The notes: a model not told the origin generated them from the sequence alone. DNA of 63,835 nucleotides, filler included, from Reclinomonas americana ATCC 50394 (GCA_048213135.1; 16 parts of 16 records of this genome joined end to end with filler, not necessarily neighbours in it), one strand, 5' to 3'. Counted from the first letter of the whole stretch, positions 16,916-58,849 are shown. Program-made: numbers and translations.

Positions 16916-17970
16916 GCACACACACACACACACACACGCACACACACACACACACCTGACGAAACGCGTACGGTTTGTCTCGATCACGGGGCCCGCTTGA
17001 CGATGATGCAAGGGACGACGAAGAGGCACTCTCCGTCGTGTACGATGAACTCGACGACGTCGTCCTCGAGCTCGAGCCGTGTGCTGAAGGCACTCGCCTG
17101 GACAACAGAAGATGCTTAGTGACACTGCAAAAAAGAATGGTAGTGGACTCGGGTCGCAACTGCGAGTACGAGAGCCGCGATCTTCTCCACATTTCACGTC
17201 TCTCGTCACCTGTTGCGAGTGAGAGCACTGAGCATCATGTGATCCAGCAAGGAGCCCGCTACTGCACCTTCATGGTGCTGCATCAAGTCCATAATCTTCG
17301 TTGCGATCCCGTGATGACGGTGATAGCACGCCCACTGTCGAGAGAGACATGTTATTTGAGGCAGGGTCATTGCTCTTGATCTCCAAGTGAGTGACGCAGA
17401 CCTTGAGTGCCTCTCGAACGTACGGGTCGTCGTCGTGCATGTCGAGCACCTCGACGAGTTCGTAAGCCTCCACGTAGCGCTCGTCTCTGATTGCGTTTGT
17501 CAGCCTGCATAAAATGAGTGATTTCATTGTTGCAGAGATATCAGATCAAACCCTACCCTTACACAACAACAACGCAACATTTCGGTCGACAGCACAGACG
17601 CACGGCTGACTGCGGGACTCAAGCTAGGACTGTAATGAGAGGTGATGTCGAAGTGAGCATGCAGACAGACACTTGCTTGTCAGAGTCGCAAGGCGGTGAC
17701 AACACAGAAATCAGTGAGTGAGAGAGAGAGAGAGAAGAGGAAGCACTGCCTTGTCGGGTGAGTGAGGGAAGCATGAATGAAGGGGAGAGGGTGACGATGA
17801 GAGTGCGAACAACACACGCAATGAACGCACAGTAGTTTTCGAGGCTGATCGTGAATGCGTTCTTCCTCACCCTCCTCCTCCTCCTTCTTCAGTGGTGACA
17901 CAGCGTCATCGCCACATTCTGCTGCACTGCCGCGATCGGGAGTGCAAGCGTGGTGTTCGCTCGACATCAT
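16038..17970 (-). CDS. Hypothetical multi-exon protein of unknown function
   Basis: ATG at 17970 (MMSSEHHAC..), GT-AG-bounded exons (RLTNAIRDERYVEAYELVEVL, WACYHRHHGIATKIMDLM) and a long terminal exon ending QMGLVEL-TAA. Internal splice pattern is uncertain. Confidence 0.5.
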
Positions 17971-18163
17971 GTCACGGAAAAAATGAAGGACAGGGCGCGC
18001 CGCCGGGACGAAGATTGATGTTGCCTTCGACAGCGTGTTGAGACAGGATGCTCTGGTACTGAGAAAGCATCCACAGCTCCACCCCAACGTCAACAGAGAA
18101 GAAAAAACCAACAGCCCATTCACTGCAATCGCCATCGACCGCAGCGTACCTCCTCATAATCAA

Positions 18164-19031
18164 TCACACCAAGCTCCTCAACGCCGACACCCACGCCGCC
18201 TTATCCTTTGGTGTGTGACACTCGATCCAGTACTCTCGCCCCGTCGTCGAATCCGTAATCACCATCAGCAACGGGCGATCCTCTATCGGGTCCGGCTGCA
18301 CCGCGCGCCCGCCCGCCACATTGATCACACCCTTGGGGCGGATCGCGGGCGACTCGGCCTCCTCGCGGCACTTGAAGTACGACACGCTCTTGGCGTCGCG
18401 ATCGAGCACAAACCAACGCGTCTTCCAGTTGCGTACAATGTTGCCGCGCTTGGTCATTGCCGTGCTCAGGTATCGAGGCAGAGAGACAGGCTCTGCTGCT
18501 GCTGTTGCAGAGGAGCGCGGAGAGATGACAGCAGAGGCGCGCGGAGACACAGAAGCGGTCTCGATTGGTGGTTGTGGTGGAGGAGGAGGTGGCGGAGGAA
18601 TGATCAGATCGGGCAGGCGTTGAAGGTGATTGATGGGTGCGAGGCCGCGTTGGCCTTGCGAGTTCTCGACGAGCCACCAGCCTGGTTTATCGGTGAGTGA
18701 GTGAGTGAGTGAGTGAGTGAGCGAGTGTGTGTGTGAGTGAGTGAGGTGTGTGTGTGCGCACCTGAAGCTTCATCTGCGATGGAAACGATGCGCAGTCGCT
18801 CGTTCTGCTCGAAAGCGAGTTCGCGTGTGGAGTCGGTGGTGACGGAGCGCGTGTAGAGTGCCACGGCGACGCCTGCGATCGATGCGTGTGAGAGTGAGTA
18901 AGCGGGAAGGGATGTGAGAGTGACTGACCGTGCGGGTCGGCTGGTGCCTGTGTGCGAGAAGTGAGTGAGCGTGTGTGATAGAGAGAGAGAGAGAGAGGGG
19001 CGATGAACGCAACTCTCTCGGCGAGTGACAT
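18164..19031 (-). CDS. SH3 + proline-rich linker + PH domain adaptor protein
   Basis: SH3: VAVALYTRS..RELAFEQNERLRIV / GWWLVENSQGQRGLAPINHL. PH: MTKRGNIVRNWKTRWFVL..REYWIECHTPKDKAAWVSALRSLV-stop. Confidence 0.88.
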
Positions 19032-19398
19032 GAATGAGAGTGAATGCATGTCCTCTTCGTCAATATATTGTGTGGTATCGACGTTCGCACACCACGAACG
19101 ACTTTTATCTGCCTGCGTCACGCAAGTAGTACTGTGGAGGTCGGGCTTCAGAAACGGCGCGAGCCGAAGCTCGACTTCACGACAGACACGAGAAGACGAA
19201 AACAATTCATTCACCGTCACCTGGATTATGAGCCTTCACAACACACCAACAAAGACGATCGCACGCCCCAGCGCCGGGGGAGAAAAATTTCCCATCGCGA
19301 AACGGCAACATCGCTCCACCACTTCGTTCTCCGATACAATCACACATTCGGAAGGCGCAGTCGGCGAGCAATGGCGCGGTGCTCACGTCTTCCGCTGT

Positions 19399-21577
19399 TC
19401 ACGTTGCCTTCTCGAACCGCATGCCGCTCAGCCGGGCCGAACACAACATCCTGCATATGTACTGCCGTGTCAGTTCAAAGGCGGCTGACAACACGCTTGA
19501 CATGAAGCATACGTAATGCACCGCTCTGGCATACTTACTCATCGCCGCGCCCACCATCGTCAGCTTCTCCGCAGGAGTGGCATCAGCAGTAAACTGAATC
19601 AGCAGCCCACGATCCACATCGGCACGAGGGGGCCCGATTGCTGCACGCATGAAACGCACGCTAAGGCTCAGGAGCACGACGTGCACACGTCTGTCAATCG
19701 CAGATACTCACTGTCTTGGTCAACTACAGCCATGTTGAATCCTGCCTGCTGCTGGCGCTCTTGTCCGAGCTCGATGCTGCCTGTAGCTGCCGCAGCGAAC
19801 GCTCGCGGCAACTTGAAAACCATGCGACCGACAGGAACAGTGCCGCGATTGAATCGCCACTCATCTACCGTGTCGGGAAATGAACAGCACATGTGCGACT
19901 TGCCGTCGCGTGATCGCGCACAGAGATATGTGCACCGTTGATTATGTCCACTGTGTGCCAAGCGACAAATGCATGTGAATCAATGTCAATACATGCAGTA
20001 TACGTAAACAAGGACAAAAAACGCGTGGGAGTACGCAACATGCAACACACAAAGCTGCAGCACGGAGCGCAGCAGCCTGGTTCGATGCGATTCACCCAAG
20101 GCGTCTGCGTAATCCGTGTCTCTCCGGTGTTCATCGAACTTGTCACTGGTGTCGCTGCAAAGCCGTTGCTATCCGTGTACACCATATTACGCGGGCCAAG
20201 TATCTCGCCGGTGGCCATGGCATCGTTGCGCATCGCAGGGTCGAGGACAGAGAAGACCGTTTGCTCAGCCGGATAATAATACCCCGCGCAGCAACACGAT
20301 ACCATTGTGCACTTGTACGGCGTCTTGCGGCGGGTTGTGTGCCGACGAATTGAGAAGGCAGGTGCACGAGAATCATCAGCCTTGTACGCAGCGTGGGTGA
20401 ATACTGCAGTCTCCTGCACGATGGAAGAGCGGGAGAGATGCGTCAAATGTACAAAGTGTGGGCATTCGCGCGTGGTAGCAGAATCATTAACGCACGTCCC
20501 AAGCCAGTGTGTCTGGACCAGAGCTACAGTCGCACCCCCATGCGTGGCAGGAGCGTGTACAGCGATCGCCGCAAGTGACCTCGTCTGCCCACAGAGCAGC
20601 AGACTTGAAGAGTGCGCCGCGAGTACGCTCGCTTGCAACTTCGATAGCGCCTCCAATGAGTAGGTTGTCGGTACAGCAGCAGCCGAACATCCAGCAGGAG
20701 CAGCAACCCTCGATGTCAAGATCACAGCATTGGCAAGTGCGAGCTGCAACACAAGGCACTGGTCACTGCACGGAACACAAAGAATGCGCATTTAAGTAGC
20801 GAGCAAACGAACCTCGACGAAGGAAATGGTCGATGCCGATCTCGGGCGTTACCTGTAGTCGCACAGAAGTCTGTTGCGCCATCATCTCAAGTGCCTGCAT
20901 GGACCGGTGTGTTACACTGAATGGCACTGCTCGTGAATCATATTCAGGTATCCACAAACCTCTGCCAGTCCACCGGCACTGGCGGCGCCCGGCGGTGGCG
21001 GCGGCGGCGGCGGCGGAAGTAGCAACGGTGGAGGTGGAGGACCGCCTTCGTCTGGGAGAGCTCGAGCAACGGCTGGCAAAGGCGGTACCGATCGATGCGC
21101 ACGCTGCACATCTCCCACCATGTACATGTTCAGCGCTGAGTCATGACCAGCAGCTGCCTCGACGGCGACGGGTCGCTGAGGCAACGGCTGGGGATGAACC
21201 TCACTCGCAACATCAGATGCAACGAGTGGCGGCGGAGGCGGTGGCGGAGGTGGAACGGCATTCAGTACCGAGAGAACAGACTGGCCAGAGCCGAAATCAA
21301 GCTCAACTTCCTCCTGTTGCACACCTGCCACCGGCTGCGCACCAAGCACCTCCTCCGCCTGGTTGATCACCACGCTGGCGGCAGCTGGTTCTTGAGGAGG
21401 GGGCTGAACGGGTTGCACACCGACGACAGGGAAATGGGGCATCGGAGGCAGGTGCACCGCAATTCGCTCATCCGACGTCCGCTGATGTGCCTGTTGCACA
21501 ACATGATCGTGAGAGTCGCAGGGGGGTGCAGCAAAGAGTGGGAAAACACTCACCACGTTGTCGCTCTCTGACGACAT
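19399..21577 (-). CDS. Phospholipid scramblase-like protein with Pro-rich N terminus and Cys-rich segments
   Basis: Pro-rich N terminus, Cys clusters (CQCCDLDIEGCCSCWMFGCCC, CCAPCC) and C-terminal DVDRGLLIQFTADATPAEKLTMVGAAM resembling the scramblase terminal helix. Confidence 0.6.
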
Positions 21578-21847
21578 AGTTTTCCCGGCGTTTCGTGACA
21601 CGCAGTGACAGGACACGCAGGAAGATGTTCGGTGTCAGATTCTATTCGACGCAATGCAACACTGGTGTCAATCGCTCGCTATCCGCAAGTTTTCGACACT
21701 GAAAAGCATACTTGTCTCTCATGTCCCGCGGCACGAAGAAGTCACACACAATCCCCTCCCCACAATCGTAATTGGGCATCGCCCTATACTTAAACCCCAC
21801 CTCGCCACAACCTGGCGTCATCCTCCCACGCTCACTGTATCGTCGCA

Positions 21848-24800
21848 TCACGACTCCTCCACGTGCGACTGCGACCGCTTGCATCCTTTGGCGTTGATGT
21901 CGGTCGAACCGCAGCACTCCCACGTAAATGTCTGCGTGACGGTCGTGAGCAACACACCGCTCCCTCCTCCAACTCGTGTGTGCGTGCGACAGACCGCCTG
22001 CACGCAGACGTGAGTACACGCGAACGACACATGCAGTCGACAATAACACACACAACTTTTCCGCGTGCCAACTGTCCTCGCGACGGTGACCGGCGAAGAG
22101 TAAGCACACACGGAACAAGCACCAGAAAGCATTAGGAAGTGGCGACTGACCTCTTGTTCCAACTGCACAGGGAGGGAGATAAAACGGTGAGCAATCACGA
22201 AGCACCAAGAGCGATGAACGGAACACGCGACTCACAAACTGTGCACCAGAAACCGCACCACCGCCAATGAAGAAAGCAGTGAGGAAGGAAGGCGCGCGTA
22301 GACAGTAACACATCGCAAACTGCCAAAAACTCACCACCTGTGAACACAGTGAGTGAGAATCGAATACAGACACCAACTGCACGACATGCAGACGAACCCG
22401 CTGTTCCGTGGACAGTCGCACAAGCGATTCGATCACAAGGTGAGCTCTGTTTGCACGGACACGGCGCACGGGGGAGATGCAGCGTACAAACCATCTGCCA
22501 CACCAAATGAGAACAGATGGGCGTCGAAGGACGAGAGGGAGTGACACGCACCACAGAAAACTGTTGTCGTCGTGCCACCAGAGGGCAAGAAAGTTAGCAA
22601 TCGAGACAGAGCTACGAACGCATGCTACAAGGCCTTCAACGCACCGCCTGTACACACGATTAGAGGTGCATTGCGACGCAATAAGAGCACAGGATAAGAG
22701 TCACGCAACAGTCTGGAGGTAGATGGTGGGCAAGTGGAGGAATGGCACACAAAGTAAGCATCAACAGCGCGAGCGTACACCGATATATGCACGCAACAGT
22801 CTGTGTGAACAAGCAGAAGTGAGGGTACAGTAAGAGAGGAGGAGTTCATGCGCACTTTGCACTTACCCCCTGTTCCGATTCGTCACGCGATGCATAATAG
22901 AAAGAAAGCAATTTTGTGAGACAACGATGAGACGCAATGAATCGTTACCAACGCACTCCCTGCGGTGAGCGCGAGAAGAACACGTCAGAGGCACATCAGC
23001 CGCGGCATGTGCATGCACATGCAAGACGCGCCTTCTGCATGAGGCAATAGAATCATCAGAAACGCGAGCATGCCAACCATTTCACACCCACGTAAGAAAC
23101 GCAACAGTATCATCCTCCGTGGACTGCCGCCGTGAGCGAAAACAACAAGACGGTCAACAATCCGCATGAGCTGTAACGCACGCCAGCATCAACTCACCCA
23201 CTGTCGTCCGTAGGTTGCACGTAGCCACAAGAAACTCGTGAGACACACAGTGCCTTTGTGGGGACACACGCCGACTCCCAAGACTCACCACCTGCACGAC
23301 TCACGAGAAATGAGATCGAGCAAGCACAAGCTGCTATAAACAGCCAAACAAACTCACCCACTGAGTGCCGACAAGTGCAGATTGTGCATGACAAATGGCG
23401 TGAGTTGGTGAGAGAGACACAGATTGCAACCTTCATCGACGACGCACCGTCTGCGCCCGACGGAAGAAATCGACAAACAGCAGACTGTGAGTGACCAGCA
23501 AGTCAAAGTATCCACGCTGGAATCACGCTACTCACCGCCTACCAACACGCATTTTCACACGATAAAAAACAAGAAAACTCAGAGTCACGCAAGCACACGG
23601 AGGCAACGTCGACGGACTTACCGCCTGTATGCATTCCGAGATGCGACACACACGTGGGTGAGTGAGATGAAGCAATGAATGTGACAATAAGCACTCTAAC
23701 GCACCCACTACGCGGGAGTAATCAATAGCACGTGCGCAATAGAAATGAGCCATGGCATTGCATAATGAGAGAGACGACAACGCACCCCCTGCAATGCAGC
23801 AAAGGAAATAAGAGCATGGTGGCAACCCAAACACGAACAAGAGACTCACCGCAAACGCCTACATGCGTGGCACGCGATAGTGATGAGAAGGTGTAAGAGA
23901 GAGTAATGCAACAATGAAATGATGTGAAGCGGATGAATCTTACCGACTGCGGATTCAGGAGGGGAAGAGGAGAAGCAAAACATGAGAACTTTCAAGATTG
24001 ACACGGCGGATACTGAACGACGCTACTTACCGTCTGCACATGATTCCACAGCGCACGCATCGCAACACATGAGTATGGACACGGTTGTGACAACAGAGCT
24101 GCCGAACAAACTCACCAACTGCACAACGCAAATCACAATGAGGGACGAATGGGAGTGACAACAGGCAAGCAACAATCAGTCAACGCACCCGCTGATACGA
24201 CAAGCAGACAGGCGAGCAATAAATATGAGCAAATGGAGGAAAGCAAATCTTACGCAGGTCACTCGCAACACTCACCCCCTGCAGTCGAGACGCAAGGCCA
24301 GCGCACGCAGAAGTATGAACATGTGAGTCTGTGTGCAAAGCTAATCGTACTCCGAGAAACACTCACGTCCTGCAATTCAACCGTGAGCATGATAAAGGAC
24401 TGCATGTGGGTGACAGGCATTGATTGACACTCACCGACTGCCAGAGGTCAGACAAGCAGGCACAACAACGAGAATCGAGCAAAGTGTCAGCGTTGCAAGC
24501 GGTTGGAACGAACGACATGTCCACTCACCAGCTGCACGCAGTCAGGCAGTGATTGTCGCACAATGAGCAAAAGTGAGTTCCCCAAGGCAGGCCATGCATG
24601 AGAGACATTGACAGACCTCCTGCAGACATCAAAGTGTATCAGAATGATGCAGACTATAATGGCCAAACAAACAGGCACACTCACCCCGTATTCCTGTTGG
24701 TTGGCGCCACGGCGAGGAAAAGAACAATCTGAGAGTGAGCGTAACCACGAGACGAAAGCCAGTCAACAGACAAGTCGCCACACACCCACTGCGTAGACAG

Positions 24801-26505
24801 AGCACGGTACCATTTCCACATGAGAAACGATGGCTCAAAAGCAATGACACATCCACCCCGTCTTACCTCGGTATGATGCATGCATGGTTGCTTCTCCGCG
24901 TACAACTCGCCGCATCTCGCACACGTCGGCGGCGGCGGCTATACAAATAAAACTAAGCACATGATACACAACGTTGGTGTTCCCAGCGATTGATGCCGCA
25001 ACTGGTGCTGCCGTTGGCGTGGCCGTCACCGGTGCCGCCGCCGCAGGTGGTACGGCGGTCACTGTGCCTGCCGAGGCCAGTCCACCGACAATGGACGCCG
25101 CCACAGCGTGTGACGCCAGCGCGCCCTGTGTGTACATGTGGAGGGAGAGAGATTGACGAGAGGGTAAAGAGGGATTGTGATGGAAATCGACAAACCTCAA
25201 TGGCACGCTGTCCTCGCGCGACAGGAGCACCGCTGCCGATACTGAGTGCGGCAATCTGGGTGAAGATGTCGTTAGGTCACAGAGAATTGCAGAAAGGAAG
25301 GTGCCTGATTGCAGCGTACCGCTTTCTCACGAAGTTGTCGCTCATCTTGCAGCGCCTTCTCAAACTGCGCACGGAGGTGTCGGAAGCATACACACAAGAT
25401 GTGAAGCAAGACATGTCATTCACCTCGCGCCGGAAACGATTCATGCGATCGGACAGCTCCATAAACCGCTCCTCCAGCACCCGCCGCTCCGCCTCGTTCT
25501 CGTCGGCTCGTCGCATGGCCTGGAGTGGACATCAACAATGAATGAAATGCATTACACAAAAGAATAGGAACCACAGTGCCGTCTGTCATGCGCTCGCACC
25601 TGATTCAATATCTGCACCATCAACAAGAAAAAGGGTCAGCGAAAAAAGATCACGGATGTGGCATGTGCGCCAGCAACGCAACGTAGCGAAACGCCGGCTC
25701 CGCGTGCACCACATGGCACTCTTGTTCGTGTGCCGGCTTGTCCGCGCCAAGTCCCTCCCATTCGCAGCCAATGTCCCACGCGCGGCACTTTTGTGGTAAC
25801 CGCGGACACGTCACATCTGCAACACATGATGAGCTCAACGAGAGCACACCCCTGATAAGAATGAAACGTACCGACGTGCCGCTGAATTTCGCCGCGCGCA
25901 AGCAAGGCCCCACAGCCGCGAGAACAGGGGACATCACGGCATTGCGCCTCGCGGTGTGCGGTCACGAAGCGGAGGGTGCCGGTGGCGCCACAACCCTGCG
26001 GGCACACATACATGCACTCGTCCCAGGCGTGGCGATTGTAGAAGTCGCGAATGCACTGGACACAAAGGGGCAGCGTGTGAGCGATGACGACACGAGCTGC
26101 AATCCCTCAACCACGCGCACCAAGCGTTTCTTGCAGCGCCGGCATTCAATCTGCCAAATACACAAACATCAGTCTCGTCGTGCCTCCGCGGAAGAGCACA
26201 CAACCAACCTCGAGATTCTCGTAGTTGCGCGCATTGAAAGCCGCCGGCATCTGCGCCGAACTGATCGAGGTCAGACTGCCGTCGCCGCACCAGTTGCGCC
26301 CCTCCTCCGTCAAGTGCGATCTGCAACGAAACACATGAGCGAGGGCCAGAAGCCAGCACCGTGAAGCCAGAAACGAACCGACAGAGAACGTGCTCTCCCG
26401 CGGCACAAAAGCACCACTCACGGGAGCACAAGTCCTGCGTGACGAGGATTAGAAATGCATACTCGGTACGTCCGCCAGCCGCTGTCTGCAGATATCGATC
26501 TCCAT
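21848..26505 (-). CDS. TRAF-type zinc-finger protein with coiled coil and a C-terminal Cys/His module built partly from 35 microexons
   Basis: Likely ATG at 26505. Zinc fingers IECRRCKKRL..HAWDEC, VCPQGCG..HREAQC, VPCSRGCG..IQRHVDVTC and KCRAWDIGCEWEG..HEQEC, then coiled coil (ERRVLEERFMELSDRMNRFRRE) and Ala/Pro linker. Exon 24938-24867 gives PPPPTCARCGELYAEKQPCMHHTE, the microexon array follows, and the last exon 21931-21848 gives TFTWECCGSTDINAKGCKRSQSHVEES-TGA. Confidence 0.8.
21995..24788 (-). other. Array of 35 phase-0 microexons (29 x 3 nt, 3 x 9 nt, and one each of 12, 15 and 18 nt)
   Basis: Repeated YAG|NNN|GT(GAGT/AAGT/GCGT..) junctions separated by 57-96-nt introns. The exons are listed in the first finding. 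Confidence 0.88.
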
Positions 26506-26589: not shown

Positions 26590-26730
26590 CCTACCCTACC
26601 CTACCCTACCCGTACCCGTCCGTACCCGTANNNNNNNNNNNNNNNNNNNNNNNNNNNNNNNNNNNNNNNNNNNNTTAATTAATTAANNNNNNNNNNNNNN
26701 NNNNNNNNNNNNNNNNNNNNNNNNNNNNNN

Positions 26731-30513: not shown

Positions 30514-30715
30514 ACAAGTGATCTGCTTGTTGTTTTTGTCTTTTTTTTTTACGATTCCAACAAGAGTGGGGAAAAAAAGTACACACACATATGCAGTCAT
30601 CCTCTTGCTGCGCCANNNNNNNNNNNNNNNNNNNNNNNNNNNNNNNNNNNNNNNNNNNNTTAATTAATTAANNNNNNNNNNNNNNNNNNNNNNNNNNNNN
30701 NNNNNNNNNNNNNNN

Positions 30716-51806: not shown

Positions 51807-54800
51807 GTGTGTACTGCGAATGGCAGCAGCTGTTCTGTCGACGAGGAGTGCTGCTCGGATAGTGTGTGCACCTACGGTACCTGTACGGTTTCGTGCGATG
51901 CCGCCACCACGTGCTTCGGTCACGGAACATGCCAGAGTGACGGCGCGTGTCTGTGCGCTGGCGACTACACCAATGCCAACTGCAACTGCAGTCTCACCGC
52001 CACGTGCTCTGGTCACGGTACATGCAAGACTGACGGCACGTGTCAGTGCACCGGCGATTACACCAATGCCATCTGCAATTGCAGTCCGGCCACCACCTGC
52101 TCTGGTCACGGAACGTGCAAGAGTGACGGTACTTGCCAGTGCTCGGGCGACTACACCAATGCCAGTTGCAACTGCAGTTCCGACCTCACATGTTCTGGAC
52201 ACGGTACCTGTGGCGCCGACGGTACGTGCAGCTGCACGAGTCCGTGCAGTGGTGAGTAGTCCTGTTGTTCTTCTTGATCGTGAATTCGTTGTAATTGCTG
52301 AGTTTATTGGTATGCACAGGTTCGTCGTGCTCAATCAGCCCCAGTACGTGGAATTCTCATGATTCCGAGCGCAACTGGCGGTCTGTGGCCTCTAGCAGTG
52401 ACGGCTCGAAGCTGGTGGCTGTTGAGCAAGGCGGTCAGATCTACACCTCCACCGATTCTGGCGCTACGTGGACGCCTCACGATTCCAATCGAGACTGGCG
52501 ATCTGTGGCCTCCAGCAGCGACGGCACCAAACTGGTGGCCGTAGAGCACAGTGGTCGGATTTACACCTCCACTGATTCTGGTATGACATGGACGTCCCCA
52601 GAGGTCTTTGACACCTGGAATTTTGCGGCCTCCAGCAATGACGGTACCAAGTTGGTGGCTGTCGCTAATGGTCTGATCTACACCTCCACCGACTCTGGCG
52701 TGATGTGGACGGCTCGAGATACCTATCGCAACTGGACCGCTGTGGCCTCCAGCAGTGACGGCACCAAGTTGGTGGCTGTAGTGGGATTTGGTCAGATCTA
52801 CACCTCCACTGACTCGGGTGAGACGTGGACAGCTCGTGATGCAGATCGCCCGTGGGTGTCGGTTACCTCCAACGGGGACGGCACCAAGCTGGTGGCCGTA
52901 GTGGAATTCGGTCAAATCTACACCTCCGCTGACTCGGGCGAGACGTGGACGGCTCGTGATGCAGATCGTGCGTGGGTGTCGGTGGCCTCCAGCAGTGACG
53001 GCACCAAGCTGGTGGCTGCGGATGACGGTGGTCAGATTTATACCTCCTCTGATTCGGGCGAGACATGGACGGCTCGTGAAAGCAGTCGTCAGTGGCGTGG
53101 AGTGGCGTCGAGTAGTGACGGTACCAAGCTGGTGGCTGCTGCGAGTGGCGGTCAGATTTACACGCTGAACCTCGGCGCATGCTCGCCGTGCTCGGGCCAC
53201 GGCACCGTCAATCCGACTGACCACTCATGCCAATGTGCCGATGACTATACGAATGCCACCTGCAACTGCAGCCCCAGCATCACGTGCTCCGGTCACGGAA
53301 CGTGCAAGACTGACGGCACATGCCAGTGCGACGCAGACAATTTCGGTGCCTCGTGCAATGTGCACTGCGTGGCAGCCACAACGTGCTCCGGTCATGGAAC
53401 GTGCAACAGTGACGGCGCGTGCCTGTGCGACGCAGACTATTACGGTGCATCGTGTAACGTTAACTGTATGGCGGCCACGACGTGTTCCAGCAACGGAACA
53501 TGCCAGAGCGACGGCACGTGCCTGTGTACTGGGGATTACACCAATGCCAACTGCAACTGCAGTCCCACCATAACGTGCCCTGGTCATGGAGCGTGCAACA
53601 GTGACGGCTCGTGCCGGTGCTCGGGCGACTTCACCAATGCCAGTTGCGACTGCAGTCCTACCGTCACGTGCTCTGGCCACGGAACGTGCAACAGTGACGG
53701 CTCATGCCAGTGCACTGGCGACTACACCAATGCCAGCTGCAACTGCAGTCCGTCGGTGACGTGCTCTGGCAATGGAACATGCAACAACGATGGATCGTGC
53801 GCGTGCACCGCTGGCGCTGATTATTATGGTGCGTCGTGTGTGCACTGTGTGGCTGCCACGACGTGCTCGGGTCGTGGTACTTGTAGTGCTGACGGAACGT
53901 GCAGCTGCGCGAGCCCATGGGGTGGTGAGTGGTGAAGTTGTTGCTTGTTGTTGTCGTGAATCGTCGTGCATGAAGACCAATGACTTGTATCGCTCGCGAA
54001 ATACAGGTTCCGCATGCTTGGTGGCACTTGGCCTGGAGTGCCCTGCGAGTACGACTCGAGCTTTCGGATTCACAGGTGACTGGCGATCTGCTGCCTCGAG
54101 CAGCGACGGCTCCAAGTTGGTGGCGGTTATGAACTACCTAAATTACGAGCCCAGCAGCTCTGGTCAGATTTTCACCTCCACTGACTCTGGCGCGACGTGG
54201 ACGGCTCGCGAAACCAGTCGCAGCTGGTCGGCAGTGGCCTCCAGCAGCGACGGCACCAAGCTGGTGGCTGCAGTCAGTGGTGGTGGTCTGATTTACACCT
54301 CCACCGACTCCGGCGTTACGTGGACGGCTCGTGATAGCAATCGCGATTGGATAGCTATGGCCTCCAGCAGTGACGGCACCAAGTTGGTGGCTGCTGTGCG
54401 GAACGGTCAGATCTACACCTCCACTGACTCTGGCGCGACGTGGACCGCTCGTGATTCCAATCGAAACTGGACTGTAGTGGCCTCCAACAGCGACGGCACC
54501 AAGCTGGTGGCTGGTGTGAACATTGACCACATTTACACGTCCGCTGACTCTGGCGTGACGTGGACCGCTCGTGATTCCATTCGCCATTGGGCTGGAGTGG
54601 CCTCCAGCAGTGACGGTACCCAGCTGGTGGCCGTAGTGTACTTTGGTTGGATTTACACGTCCACTGACTCTGGCGTGACGTGGACCGCCCGCGAGTCCCA
54701 GCGATACTGGGGGGCAGTGGCCTCCAGCAGTGACGGCGCGAAGCTGGTGGCTACGGATAGCTTTGGCGGTCGGATCTACACCTCCACTGACTCTGGCGTG

Positions 54801-57800
54801 TCGTGGACGGTTCGTGAATCCGATCACAGCTGGCAGTTTGTGGTCTCCAGCAGTGACGGCACGAAACTGCTGGCTGGCGTATCCAATAGCCACCTTTACA
54901 CCTCCACTGACTCCGGTGTGACGTGGACATCTGGTGCTGTGACTCTTGTGCCCGTTAGTTGGACTTCGGTGGCCTCCAGCGTTAACGGAGCCAGACTGGT
55001 GGCTGTAGCAAACGGTGGCCATATATACACCTCACCTGATTCTGGCGTGACGTGGACGGCGCGTGATTCTAGTCGCAGCTGGCGGGCTGTGGCCTCCAGC
55101 AGTGACGGCGCCAAGCTTGTGGCGGCGGTGAAAAGTGGTTTTCTTTATACTTCCGCTGACTCTGGCGCGACATGGACAGCGCGCGATTCCGGTCGCAACT
55201 GGCAGTCTGTGGCCTCCAGCAGTGACGGCACCAAGCTAGTGGCGGCAGTGCTAGACGGGCAGATCTACACCTCCGCTGACTCTGGCGTGACGTGGACAGC
55301 TCGGGAGACCAATCGCCGCTGGTTCTCTGTGGCCTCCAGTAGTGACGGCACCAAGCAAGTGGCGGCAGCGCAAGACGGCCAGATCTACGCCTCCACTGAC
55401 TCGGGCGTGACGTGGATAGCTCGGGAGTCCAATCGCCGCTGGTTCTCTGTGGCCTCCAGTAGTGACGGCACCAAGCAAGTGGCGGCAGCGCAAGACGGCC
55501 AGATCTACACCTCCGCTGACTCTGGCGTGACGTGGATAGCTCGGGAGTCCAATCGCCGCTGGTTCTCAGTGGCCTCCAGCAGTGACGGCACCAACCTCGC
55601 GGCTGTTGAACAAACTGGTCTGATCTATACCTCCTCTGACTCTGGTGAGACGTGGACAGCTCGAGATATCGCTCGTAGCTGGGTAGCAATGACCTCCAAC
55701 GGCGATGGCACAAAGCTGGTGGCTGCGGTGCCGGGTGGCCCGCTATTCACACTGAATATTGGCGTATGTCTCTCGTGCTCTGACCACGGCGCACTCAATC
55801 CGAACGACGGCTCATGCCAGTGCACTGGTGATTACACGAGTACCCACTGCAACTGCAGTCCCACTGCGACGTGCTCTGGACACGGAGCGTGCAAGACTGA
55901 TGGCACTTGCCTGTGTGACGCGGACTATTATGGTGCGTCGTGCAGTGTGAGCTGTGTGGCGGCCACCACGTGCTCTGGCCACGGCACGTGCGAGAGCGGT
56001 GGAACGTGCCAGTGCGATGCTGACTATTACGGTGCATCTTGCAATGTAAAGTGTGTTGCAGCTACGACGTGCTCTGGAAACGGCACGTGCAACAACGATG
56101 GATCGTGCCAGTGCACGGGTGACTACACCAATGCCAGCTGCAACTGCAGTCCCAGCACTACGTGCTCCGGACACGGAACGTGCAATAGTGACGGCACTTG
56201 CCAGTGCGACGCTGACTATTACGGTGCCTCGTGCACTGTGAACTGTGTGGCAGCTACGACGTGCTCTGGAAATGGCACCTGTGGCACTGATGGATTGTGC
56301 GTCTGCACGAGTCCATGCACCGGTATGTAGTACAGTTATTACTGATTGTGATTCCATTTCGTGCCGTCGCTTACTTTGATGTTGTACATAGGGCCTTCGT
56401 GTGCAGTCAGCCCCAGTGCTTGGAATGCTCGTGATTCCAACCGCAACTGGCTGTCAGTGGCCAGTAGCGGTGACGGCACCAAGCTAGTGGCGGCAGTGCA
56501 AGACGGGCAGATTTATACCTCCACCGATACTGGTGTTATATGGACAGCTCGCGATTCCGGTCGCGGATGGTTTTCGGTGGCCTCGAGTAGTGACGGCACC
56601 AACCTGGTAGCTGCTGAGTATACTGGTAGAGTCTACACGTCCACTGACTTTGGTGTGATATGGACAGCTCGCGATTCCGATCGCAGATGGGTGTCGGTGG
56701 CCTCCAGTAGTGACGGCACCAAGCTGGTTGCTGTGGAACAAGTTGGTCAGATATACACGTCCACTGACTCTGGCGTGACATGGACGGCTCGTGATTCCGT
56801 TCGCAACTGGTTCTCGGTGGCCTCCAGCAGTGACGGCACCAAGCTGGTAGCCGCTGTGGAAGATGGTCAGCTTTACACGTCCACTGACTCTGGCGTGACG
56901 TGGACAGCTCGTGATGCAGATCGCGCGTGGATATCAGTGGCCTCGAGCAGTGACGGCACCAAGCTGGTGGCTGTGGTATTTGGTGGTCGGATTTACACCT
57001 CCTCTGATTCTGGCGTGATATGGACTGCTCACGAGTCCAATCGTATCTGGGTATCAGTGGCCTCCAGCAGTGACGGCACCAATTTGGTGGCTGTTGTCAT
57101 CGAAGGTCAGATTTACACATCCACTGACTCGGGTGTGACGTGGACAGCTCGCGAGTCCAATCGCTCATGGAGATCGGTGGCCTCCAGCAGTGACGGTACC
57201 AAACTGGTGGCTCTGGAATATGGTGGTCAGATTTACACTTTTGATCTCGGCATATGTTCAGTGTGCTCGGGCCACGGCACATTAAGCCCTATTGACGGCA
57301 CTTGTCAGTGCACTGGCGACTACAACAATGCCAGTTGCAACTGCAGTCCCAGCATCACGTGCTTTGGACACGGAACGTGCAAGACTGACGGCACTTGCCA
57401 GTGTGACGCTGATTATTACGGTGTCTCGTGCACTGTGAAGTGTGTGGCGGGCACGACGTGCTCCGCCCACGGAACATGCAAGACTGACGGCACATGCCTG
57501 TGCTCGGGCGACTACACCAATGCCAGCTGCAATTGCAGTCCCACTGCCACGTGCTCTGGTCACGGTACATGCAAAACTGACGGCACATGCCAGTGCACTG
57601 GCGACTATACCAATGCCATCTGCAACTGCAGTCCCACCACCACGTGCTCTGGTCACGGAACGTGCAATGTTGACGGGACGTGTCTGTGCACGGGTGACTA
57701 CACCAATGCCAGCTGCAACTGCAGTCCCAGCCTTACGTGCTCTGGTCACGGATCGTGCAAGACTGACGGCACTTGCCTGTGCGACGCTGACTATTACGGT

Positions 57801-58849
57801 GCCTCGTGCACTGTGAACTGTGTGGCGGCCACCACGTGCTCTGGACATGGCACTTGTGGCACCAATGGAACGTGTGTCTGCACGAGTCCGTGCACTGGTG
57901 AGTTTTGCCTTTGTTTCCTGATCGTGAATTTACTGCGTGCTGTTGCTGACTTTATTGTTTTCGCACAGGATCGTCGTGCTCAGTCAGCCCTTCTACTGCT
58001 CGAGATTCCATTCGCCAGTGGCAGTCTGTGGCCTCCAGCAGTGACGGCAGCAAGCTGGTAGCCGTGGTGCAAACTAGTGGTCAGATTTACACTTCTATCG
58101 ACGCTGGTGTGACGTGGACACCTCGTGATTCTAATCGCGACTGGCGATCGGTGGCCACCAGCAGCGACGGCTCCAAGCTGGTGGCTGTTGTAAGGAGCGG
58201 TCAGATTTACACGTCCGCTGACTCTGGTGTGACGTGGACTCCACGTGAATCCAATCGCCTGTGGGCCTCAGTAGCCTCCAGCGGTGACGGTAGCAAGCTG
58301 GTTGCTGTGGTGCAAAATGGTGGTCAGATTTACACCTCCGCCGACTCTGGCGTGAGTTGGGTGGCACGTGATTCCGGTCGAAACTGGACTGCAGTGGCCT
58401 CTAGCGGTGACGGCACCAAGCTTGTGGCTGCGGTGGTCTCTGGGCAGATCTACACCTCCACCGACTCTGGTGTGACATGGACGGCTCGTGATTCCAATCG
58501 AAGTTGGAAATCGGTGGCCTCGAGCAGCGACGGCACCAGACTGGTGGCAGTCGCGAATGATGGTGATCACGTTTACACATCGACTGATTCTGGCGTAACA
58601 TGGACATCCCGCGACTCCGCTCGCCAGTGGAGTGGTGTGGCCTCCAGCAGTGACGGTACCAAGCTGGTGGCTGTGGTATTCTCTGGTCAGCTCTTTACGT
58701 CAACTGACTCTGGTGTGACGTGGACGGCTCGCGACTCAAGTCGCATCTGGAGTGGTGTGGCCTCCAGCGGCGACGGCAGCAAGCTGGTGGCTGCTGTGCA
58801 AGGTGGTTTTCTTTACACTTTCGATCTCGGCGTATGCTCTTTGCTCTAG
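51807..58849 (+). CDS. Large extracellular protein of alternating EGF-like arrays and BNR/Asp-box beta-propellers (5 visible exons, 5' end in or before the gap)
   Basis: EGF repeats TCSGHGTCxxDGTCxCxxDYxxxxC and 35 copies of an approximately 40-aa repeat WxSVASSSDGTKLVAxxxxGQIYTSTDSGxTWTAR. Introns at 52252-52319, 53925-54006, 56323-56391 and 57898-57968. TAG at 58847-58849. Confidence 0.92.

Follow-up and report, generated by a model that had tools for sequence, protein, structure and literature searches.

An apparent chain of single-codon microexons at the end of a TRAF-zinc-finger-like gene of Reclinomonas americana

Do arrays of exons that hold a single codon each make protein diversity, or are they tolerated by-products of the amplification of intron units? 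A second, independent system in which this can be asked is presented by a stretch of DNA of 63,835 nucleotides (nt) from Reclinomonas americana ATCC 50394 (GCA_048213135.1), joined from parts of 16 records with filler and called here the window. On its minus strand, at 21932..24866, 35 consecutive in-frame microexons are found, 29 of them 3 nt long and six of 9-18 nt, and 36 introns of 57-96 nt separate them. This places the chain among the most extreme exon-intron structures found on record. It is best explained, with a probability of about 0.62, as a real gene structure, in which the end of a TRAF-zinc-finger-like gene is cut by 36 ordinary short introns, the transcripts mostly carry the full insert and the chain itself goes back to an old duplication of units. 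Such a structure would bear on the limits of splice-site recognition, given that acceptor and donor stand only 3 nt apart at 29 exons of the chain. It would also bear on annotation, as standard gene finders and RNA-seq aligners would miss these exons.

The chain and the exons that flank it

The chain was first proposed by a sequence-only reading, and a script has recovered all 35 of its exon strings on the minus strand (Table 1), together with introns of exactly the number, the lengths and the YAG acceptors that had been described (33 CAG and three TAG). The donors begin with GT in 35 of the 36 introns, intron 23 having GC (GCGCGT) in this position. The commonest donor hexamer is GTGAGT (13 introns), followed by GTGCGT (7), GTAAGT and GTTGCG (3 each), GTAAGA and GTCTGT (2 each) and six others found once. 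When the exons are joined by script the frame is open from the exon preceding the chain through 53 codons to a stop at 21848, which reproduces the 53-residue peptide predicted for full inclusion. All 37 junction positions are in phase 0 and the six longer exons are all multiples of 3, so that the frame neutrality claimed for the exons and for both flanks is borne out by the lengths and by the joined translation. As had also been counted, G is the last base in 24 of the 29 triplets, and GAC, GGA, ACT, ACT and TTT are the others. The same preference is that of the donor consensus in the host gene, and the triplets thus look set by the needs of splice sites and not by a pattern at the level of the protein.

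Keeping any one intron in the transcript brings an in-frame stop in 16 of the 36 cases and, in 22, a length not divisible by 3, and only six introns can be read through. The introns are poor in A (15% A, 33% T), and it is because of this that the minus strand contains a stop-free frame of 352 codons at 21642-22700. The region had been called poor in open reading frames (ORFs), a description which this frame contradicts. The frame has no Pfam match, and an alternative gene in the region was rejected since no contiguous ORF on either strand contains a Pfam family.

The splice signals and the open frame suggest that the chain is spliced and translated. By intron definition, each intron would be recognised singly across its 57-96 nt, and neighbouring introns would be removed successively because an exon of 3 nt is too short for the acceptor and donor complexes together. 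Full inclusion would then give a loop of 53 residues between the halves of a small C-terminal Cys/His module that resembles the BTK motif. Any donor could be joined to any later acceptor in frame, and the retention of an intron would nearly always break the frame. What would be expected is mostly the full-length insert, along with a smaller share of shortened variants that keep the frame and pass quality control; at an assumed 2% of skipping per exon, 0.98^35 would leave about half of the transcripts short of at least one codon. The premise that any exon can be skipped in frame has held as anatomy, and the figure of 2^35 combinations drawn from it is correct as an upper bound only. Diversification by exon skipping is plausible for this gene and has a precedent in the fungal arrays discussed below.

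The exons on the two sides of the chain look like two halves of one small C-terminal Cys/His zinc-binding module which the chain splits (Table 1). The last exon matches the BTK motif of Pfam (PF00779) at profile positions 12-27 of 30 (E 2.2e-4, 21.5 bits), and the His ligand of this motif would need to come from the exon preceding the chain. The latter exon has no Pfam match, and against PDB sequences it gave only weak C2H2-like matches, of which single stretches were insignificant; the last exon matched no PDB sequence. The affinity of the host gene is suggested by its upstream part. An ORF of 156 codons at 25636-26106 was searched with phmmer against 1.84 billion representatives and gave seven matches, all distant and with at most 37% identity, the best being a multi-repeat protein (E 1.8e-12, 33% identity) and some of the seven being artefacts of translated repeats. 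The Pfam family found on these relatives is zf-TRAF (E 5e-58 and 7e-40); the ORF itself has no significant Pfam match.

Several findings weigh against the reading as a gene with a mostly full insert. The match to the BTK motif lies below the Pfam gathering score (21.5 bits versus 24), and the 53-residue insert contains neither Cys nor His and would place about 60 residues between the presumed zinc ligands. Nine donors of the chain are weak (GTTGCG three times, GTCTGT twice, and GCGCGT, GTTTGT, GTTCGT and GTTGTG once each), so that some exon boundaries possibly lie in another register. The absence of stop codons from the chain is uninformative, as chance alone would put about 0.9 stops into 29 triplets. 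No orthologue or annotated protein of the gene was found by phmmer or by word index, the word-index search of longer proteins giving no relative at all, and no public RNA run covering 17700-26200 is listed. Finally, the introns carry no trace of common descent, as detailed in the next section, and the case for an origin by duplication is thus one of analogy.

The two flanking exons could also be joined directly, the whole 2.9 kb being removed with its internal sites as stepping stones or decoys and the 53 codons never translated. Both flanks are in phase 0, and by our reading of the Pfam alignment such joining would bring the His pair near to W-x-C-C, closer to the spacing of the BTK motif. 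However, an intron of 2,935 nt would be some 30 times longer than the other modelled introns of the gene (31-98 nt), and the multiple-of-3 lengths of the exons would be left unexplained. Stepwise removal at internal acceptor-donor pairs is known from the ratchet points of Drosophila, where long introns are spliced recursively at sites of zero length (AG then GT) and nothing is left in the mRNA. The chain resembles these in being a long stretch with such internal pairs, but it contains no YAG-GTNNGT site, and each step would leave its triplet in the mRNA. Direct joining is therefore considered very unlikely.

Splice signals and the nature of the introns

The arrangement of the chain is not random. 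The pattern YAG-NNN-GTNNGT has 32 matches on the minus strand of the window (63.8 kb), and 25 of these fall inside the 2.9-kb chain, which makes up 4.6% of the window. When the spacer of this pattern is set to 0, 1, 2 or 4 nt there is no match in the chain region, whereas the matches with spacers of 5 and 6 nt fall within introns 17, 28 and 31 and three with a spacer of 9 nt are the 9-nt exons. The branch-like motifs that had been noticed before the acceptors proved to be general, as 35 of the 36 introns have a CTNAY at 5-50 nt from the acceptor, against a mean of 11.9 and a maximum of 20 in 300 shuffles. Moreover, the distance from the acceptor to the preceding AG has a median of 54 nt in the chain introns versus 20 nt in shuffles, and so long an AG-free zone fits the expectation if cryptic acceptors are selected against. 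In size the introns agree with those of 55-98 nt in one modelled exon path of the upstream gene part.

It may be added that AG dinucleotides are nearly absent over the whole of the chain introns, which exceeds the need of an exclusion zone between branch point and acceptor. A chain finder applied to the whole window on either strand gave, apart from the chain itself, only two candidates of three units, neither of them comparable to it. One of them (52768-53085) is false, as it lies within the coding sequence of BNR repeats, and the other (1711-1989) is ambiguous.

The 36 complete sets of splice signals and the exclusion of AG imply selection for splicing, which argues against a non-coding region, be it a decayed 3' end or a host of small RNAs derived from introns (mirtrons or small nucleolar RNAs). 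A non-coding nature would fit the outcome of the searches, which gave neither a transcript nor an annotated protein, and an insert peptide that belongs to no recognisable family. Nevertheless the introns have less structure than shuffled sequences (mean folding z of +0.39, with one of the 36 below -2), so that an identity as hairpin introns was rejected, and an Rfam search of the introns gave no family at E<=1. In addition, the frame of the chain leads into a last exon that resembles the BTK motif and contains a stop codon. A non-coding chain is held to be extremely improbable.

The likeliest origin of the chain would be an old serial duplication of a unit made of one intron and one codon, followed by divergence of the introns; the young state of such a process may be seen, by analogy, in the fungal environmental arrays described below. 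A tandem-repeat origin that is still visible was rejected, as TRF finds no repeat in the chain. Local alignment of the introns gave a mean score of 14.2 versus 13.0 when shuffled and a maximum of 24 versus 29, with adjacent pairs scoring like distant ones, and the global identity of adjacent introns (0.56 versus 0.51 shuffled) is at the random baseline. This heterogeneity gives no sign of ongoing recombinational turnover in the chain. As an alternative to the duplication of a unit, a mobile intron (an introner, or a transposon with a 3-bp target duplication) could have inserted time and again, and environmental arrays such as L038, with near-identical introns between non-repetitive codons, would speak for this. 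However, introner-like elements are expected as many near-identical copies, whereas the introns of the chain are unlike each other. Target-site duplication was rejected as well, because the two triplets around an intron resemble each other no more than permuted triplets do (mean Hamming distance 1.78 versus 1.80, P 0.47, identical in 2 of 36). Insertion of mobile introns is thus thought unlikely for the chain.

Table 1. Exons of the chain and of its host gene in the window
Feature	Coordinates	Strand	Basis
5' part of the gene, with candidate ATG at 26250, Cys/His-rich TRAF-zinc-finger-like exons, coiled-coil and Ala/Pro/Thr/Val-rich linker exons	24939..26250	minus	exon path by script
12-nt microexon in the upstream part of the gene	25600..25611	minus	in all three open exon paths; neighbouring introns ~57-98 and 80 nt
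Exon preceding the chain, 24 codons, phase-0 end, C-x2-C ... C-x-H-H	24867..24938	minus	sequence, translation
Single-codon exons (29 in all), first part, lowest coordinates	24786, 24617, 24529, 24435, 24367, 24276, 24189, 24116, 24031, 23944, 23786, 23705, 23622, 23536, 23448	minus	
Single-codon exons, rest, lowest coordinates	23358, 23289, 23198, 23032, 22957, 22867, 22798, 22710, 22645, 22492, 22398, 22335, 22236, 21995	minus	
9-nt exon	24685..24693	minus	coordinate check, spacer-9 match
9-nt exon	23850..23858	minus	coordinate check, spacer-9 match
18-nt exon, followed by weak donor GTTGCG	23106..23123	minus	coordinate check
9-nt exon	22552..22560	minus	coordinate check, spacer-9 match
12-nt exon	22151..22162	minus	coordinate check
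15-nt exon	22057..22071	minus	coordinate check
Last coding exon, 27 codons and stop, phase-0 start, W-x-C-C ... G-C ... H	21848..21931	minus	Pfam match below cut-off

Comparable arrays in fungi and in metagenomes

The sequence-only reading knew of no array dominated by one-codon exons, but the NACHT-ankyrin (nank) genes of Tuber melanosporum provide a precedent. In citing papers, these genes are described as containing dozens of alternatively spliced 3-bp mini-exons, a finding credited to Iotti et al. (2012, Fungal Biol 116:261) and cited in Dyrka et al. (2014; PMC4986451). Other citing papers word it as 'tens of codon-sized microexons' (PMC3689799), 'dozens of 3 bp mini-exons' (PMC9815663) and '3-bp long microexons' (PMC10197012). 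This was the sole precedent found in the literature on runs of 3-nt exons, and it was reached via such citing papers. As far as these accounts go, the Tuber arrays and the chain have in common tens of consecutive one-codon exons with short introns within a coding region, of which the skipping is neutral to the frame. The hosts are different, since that of Tuber is a NACHT-ankyrin gene of the NLR type whereas the present one has TRAF-type fingers and a BTK-like motif and belongs to a flagellate. No NACHT or ankyrin (ANK) domain was found in any ORF of the gene or the region; as the gene runs up to an assembly gap at ~26640 on its 5' side, a further domain may conceivably lie upstream. The chain is accordingly filed as working like the Tuber arrays but is kept apart from their gene family, its host not being an NLR.

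Metagenomes were scanned for similar arrays with a pattern of three GTGAGT donors and two CAG-NNN microexons at gaps of 55-85 nt, which matches the window three times and its 100 shuffles never. At least 135 loci were found (labelled L001-L134), and the counts given here for their exons, introns and triplets are those among the matches listed. The environmental chains have 10-39 single-codon exons and GT-AG introns of 64-82 nt, and within an array the introns mostly share 70-95% identity, several families of them being common to different contigs. For 39 arrays, kept for having at least 10 units of which at least eight were of equal length after the removal of arrays with near-constant triplets, the entropy is 1.33 bits at triplet positions versus 0.35 at intron positions, and in all 39 the triplets exceed the introns in variability. 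Inside runs of at least six strict introns, 730 of 795 exons are exactly 3 nt long and 774 are multiples of 3. Once low-diversity chains had been excluded (L030, for instance, has 11 stops in 12 triplets), the 1238 variable triplets contain four stops, all of them TGA with neither TAA nor TAG, against 78 expected from positional composition. This avoidance indicates that the environmental triplets are read as codons.

Thirteen ORFs that flank arrays were scanned for domains and two were informative, both upstream of the array and on its strand. One is a NACHT/NPHP3_N exon at L073:294-1904 (+) with E 1e-25 and the other an ankyrin-repeat exon at L052:61-900 (+). Among named relatives, Mycena (Basidiomycota) proteins come closest to the NACHT exon, at ~40% identity, and metagenome proteins reach 78%. 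Given this Mycena-like exon, codon-sized arrays may not be confined to Tuber, and the environmental arrays suggest that soil fungi have them far more often than one would gather from the literature.

Examples of the environmental arrays are L006:900-1716, L062:1700-4400, L025:200-2560, L038:400-1990 and L073:1927-4000, the longest found having 39 exons. Some of their codon strings are of low complexity (rich in Leu/Gln/Pro or in Glu/Phe) and others, such as that of L038, look non-repetitive; the near-identical introns between the non-repetitive codons of L038 are poorly explained by plain duplication of a unit. The environmental arrays and the chain are alike in being runs of single-codon exons between short introns. 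They differ in that the environmental introns are near-identical whereas those of the chain are at the random baseline (0.56), as in the most diverged environmental arrays (L052, 0.56). Moreover, the environmental triplets mostly end in A or T and those of the chain are mostly NNG.

The same pattern was sought in 596 Gb of prokaryote genomes and gave 75 loci (L135-L209), several of them in Streptococcus, Staphylococcus and Legionella. These were rejected as microexon arrays because the triplet is mostly invariant from copy to copy, which makes them plain tandem repeats of ~39-90 nt. The pattern by itself is hence not specific and is no proof of introns.

These comparisons bear on whether the chain is a programmed cassette, in which the skipping of single-codon exons builds loop variants of the zinc module in the way proposed for the NACHT-ANK genes of Tuber. 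The uniform phase 0, the exon lengths in multiples of 3, the clustering of the weak donors in the second half of the chain and the high variability of triplets relative to introns in every kept environmental array would all fit this, and the sole described relatives of the architecture are said, in citing papers, to vary by alternative splicing. Nevertheless no public RNA run is listed for the locus. The gene has no NACHT, ankyrin or other receptor-type domain, the excess of NNG triplets fits the donor consensus and not the selection of residues, and with introns so heterogeneous the recombination and concerted evolution of the fungal arrays are absent. In addition, where introns are short and intron definition is the rule, the usual outcome is a retained intron and not a skipped exon. 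A programmed cassette is held to be rather improbable.

A broader proposal is that codon-by-codon exon arrays are a recurrent eukaryotic device, which would have arisen independently in a non-NLR signalling gene of a flagellate and whose combinatorial skipping would build a variable zinc-module loop. This is doubtful; if true, it would mean a post-transcriptional generator of repertoires outside fungi. A chain in a different gene family, in a flagellate and with nothing that marks a fungus, would show that the architecture does not depend on immune receptors of fungi.

Other systems are less close. The micro-exon genes (MEGs) of Schistosoma reportedly have short symmetric exons of ~6-36 nt, long introns and secreted products, and the skipping of their exons is said to vary the protein. 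They share with the chain the runs of short symmetric exons, but in the chain 29 of the 35 exons are of 3 nt and the introns are shorter than 100 nt. In plants, 2,398 small microexons across 10 species are given in the abstract of one survey (PMC8831610), no run of dozens being described there. The ultra-short microexons (1-15 nt) of plants and animals, isolated or in small clusters, are missed by annotation pipelines, as the chain would be. The WD, ANK and TPR repeat arrays of fungal NLRs are described as highly conserved internally, and an exon-per-repeat shuffling is described for the NB-ARC-TPR genes of brown algae (PMC9815663, PMC10197012). Their units, like those of the chain, are modular and can be added, lost or reshuffled in frame. 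However, they are structural repeats of ~24-42 residues that are reshuffled in the DNA, whereas the unit of the chain is one residue and gives no sign of recombination.

The upstream gene and its surroundings

For the part of the gene upstream of the chain, an exon path that is open from the ATG at 26250 to 24867 was found by script, although its exact model is ambiguous at the level of the DNA. The introns of this part are 55-98 nt in one modelled path, and hand-read alternatives start from ~31 nt.

Assembly gaps (runs of N) surround a TTAATTAATTAA linker at ~26640-26700 and at ~30600-30670, and TTAATTAATTAA has stop codons in every frame. Between the candidate start and the first gap, which lies upstream of it, there are ~400 nt, so that the 5' end of the gene depends on a draft join. 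Simple repeats, long (GA)n/(TC)n ones as well as A-rich or G-rich ones, lie between 26500 and 27800, with a TAGGG-like short repeat beside the gap, and on the minus strand these repeats give Lys/Glu/Arg-rich pseudo-ORFs.

The neighbouring genes in the window encode SH3-PH, IFT57, RhoGAP, UCH, COQ2/UbiA and BNR/EGF-repeat proteins, of which IFT57 points to a flagellated eukaryote. Of 5.8 billion proteins, none exceeds ~60% identity to the COQ2/UbiA ORF. On the plus strand, at 52295-58849, there are three or four long and apparently intron-free ORFs with BNR/Sortilin-type repeats followed by teneurin-type EGF domains. Their lack of introns contrasts with the intron-dense gene that holds the chain.

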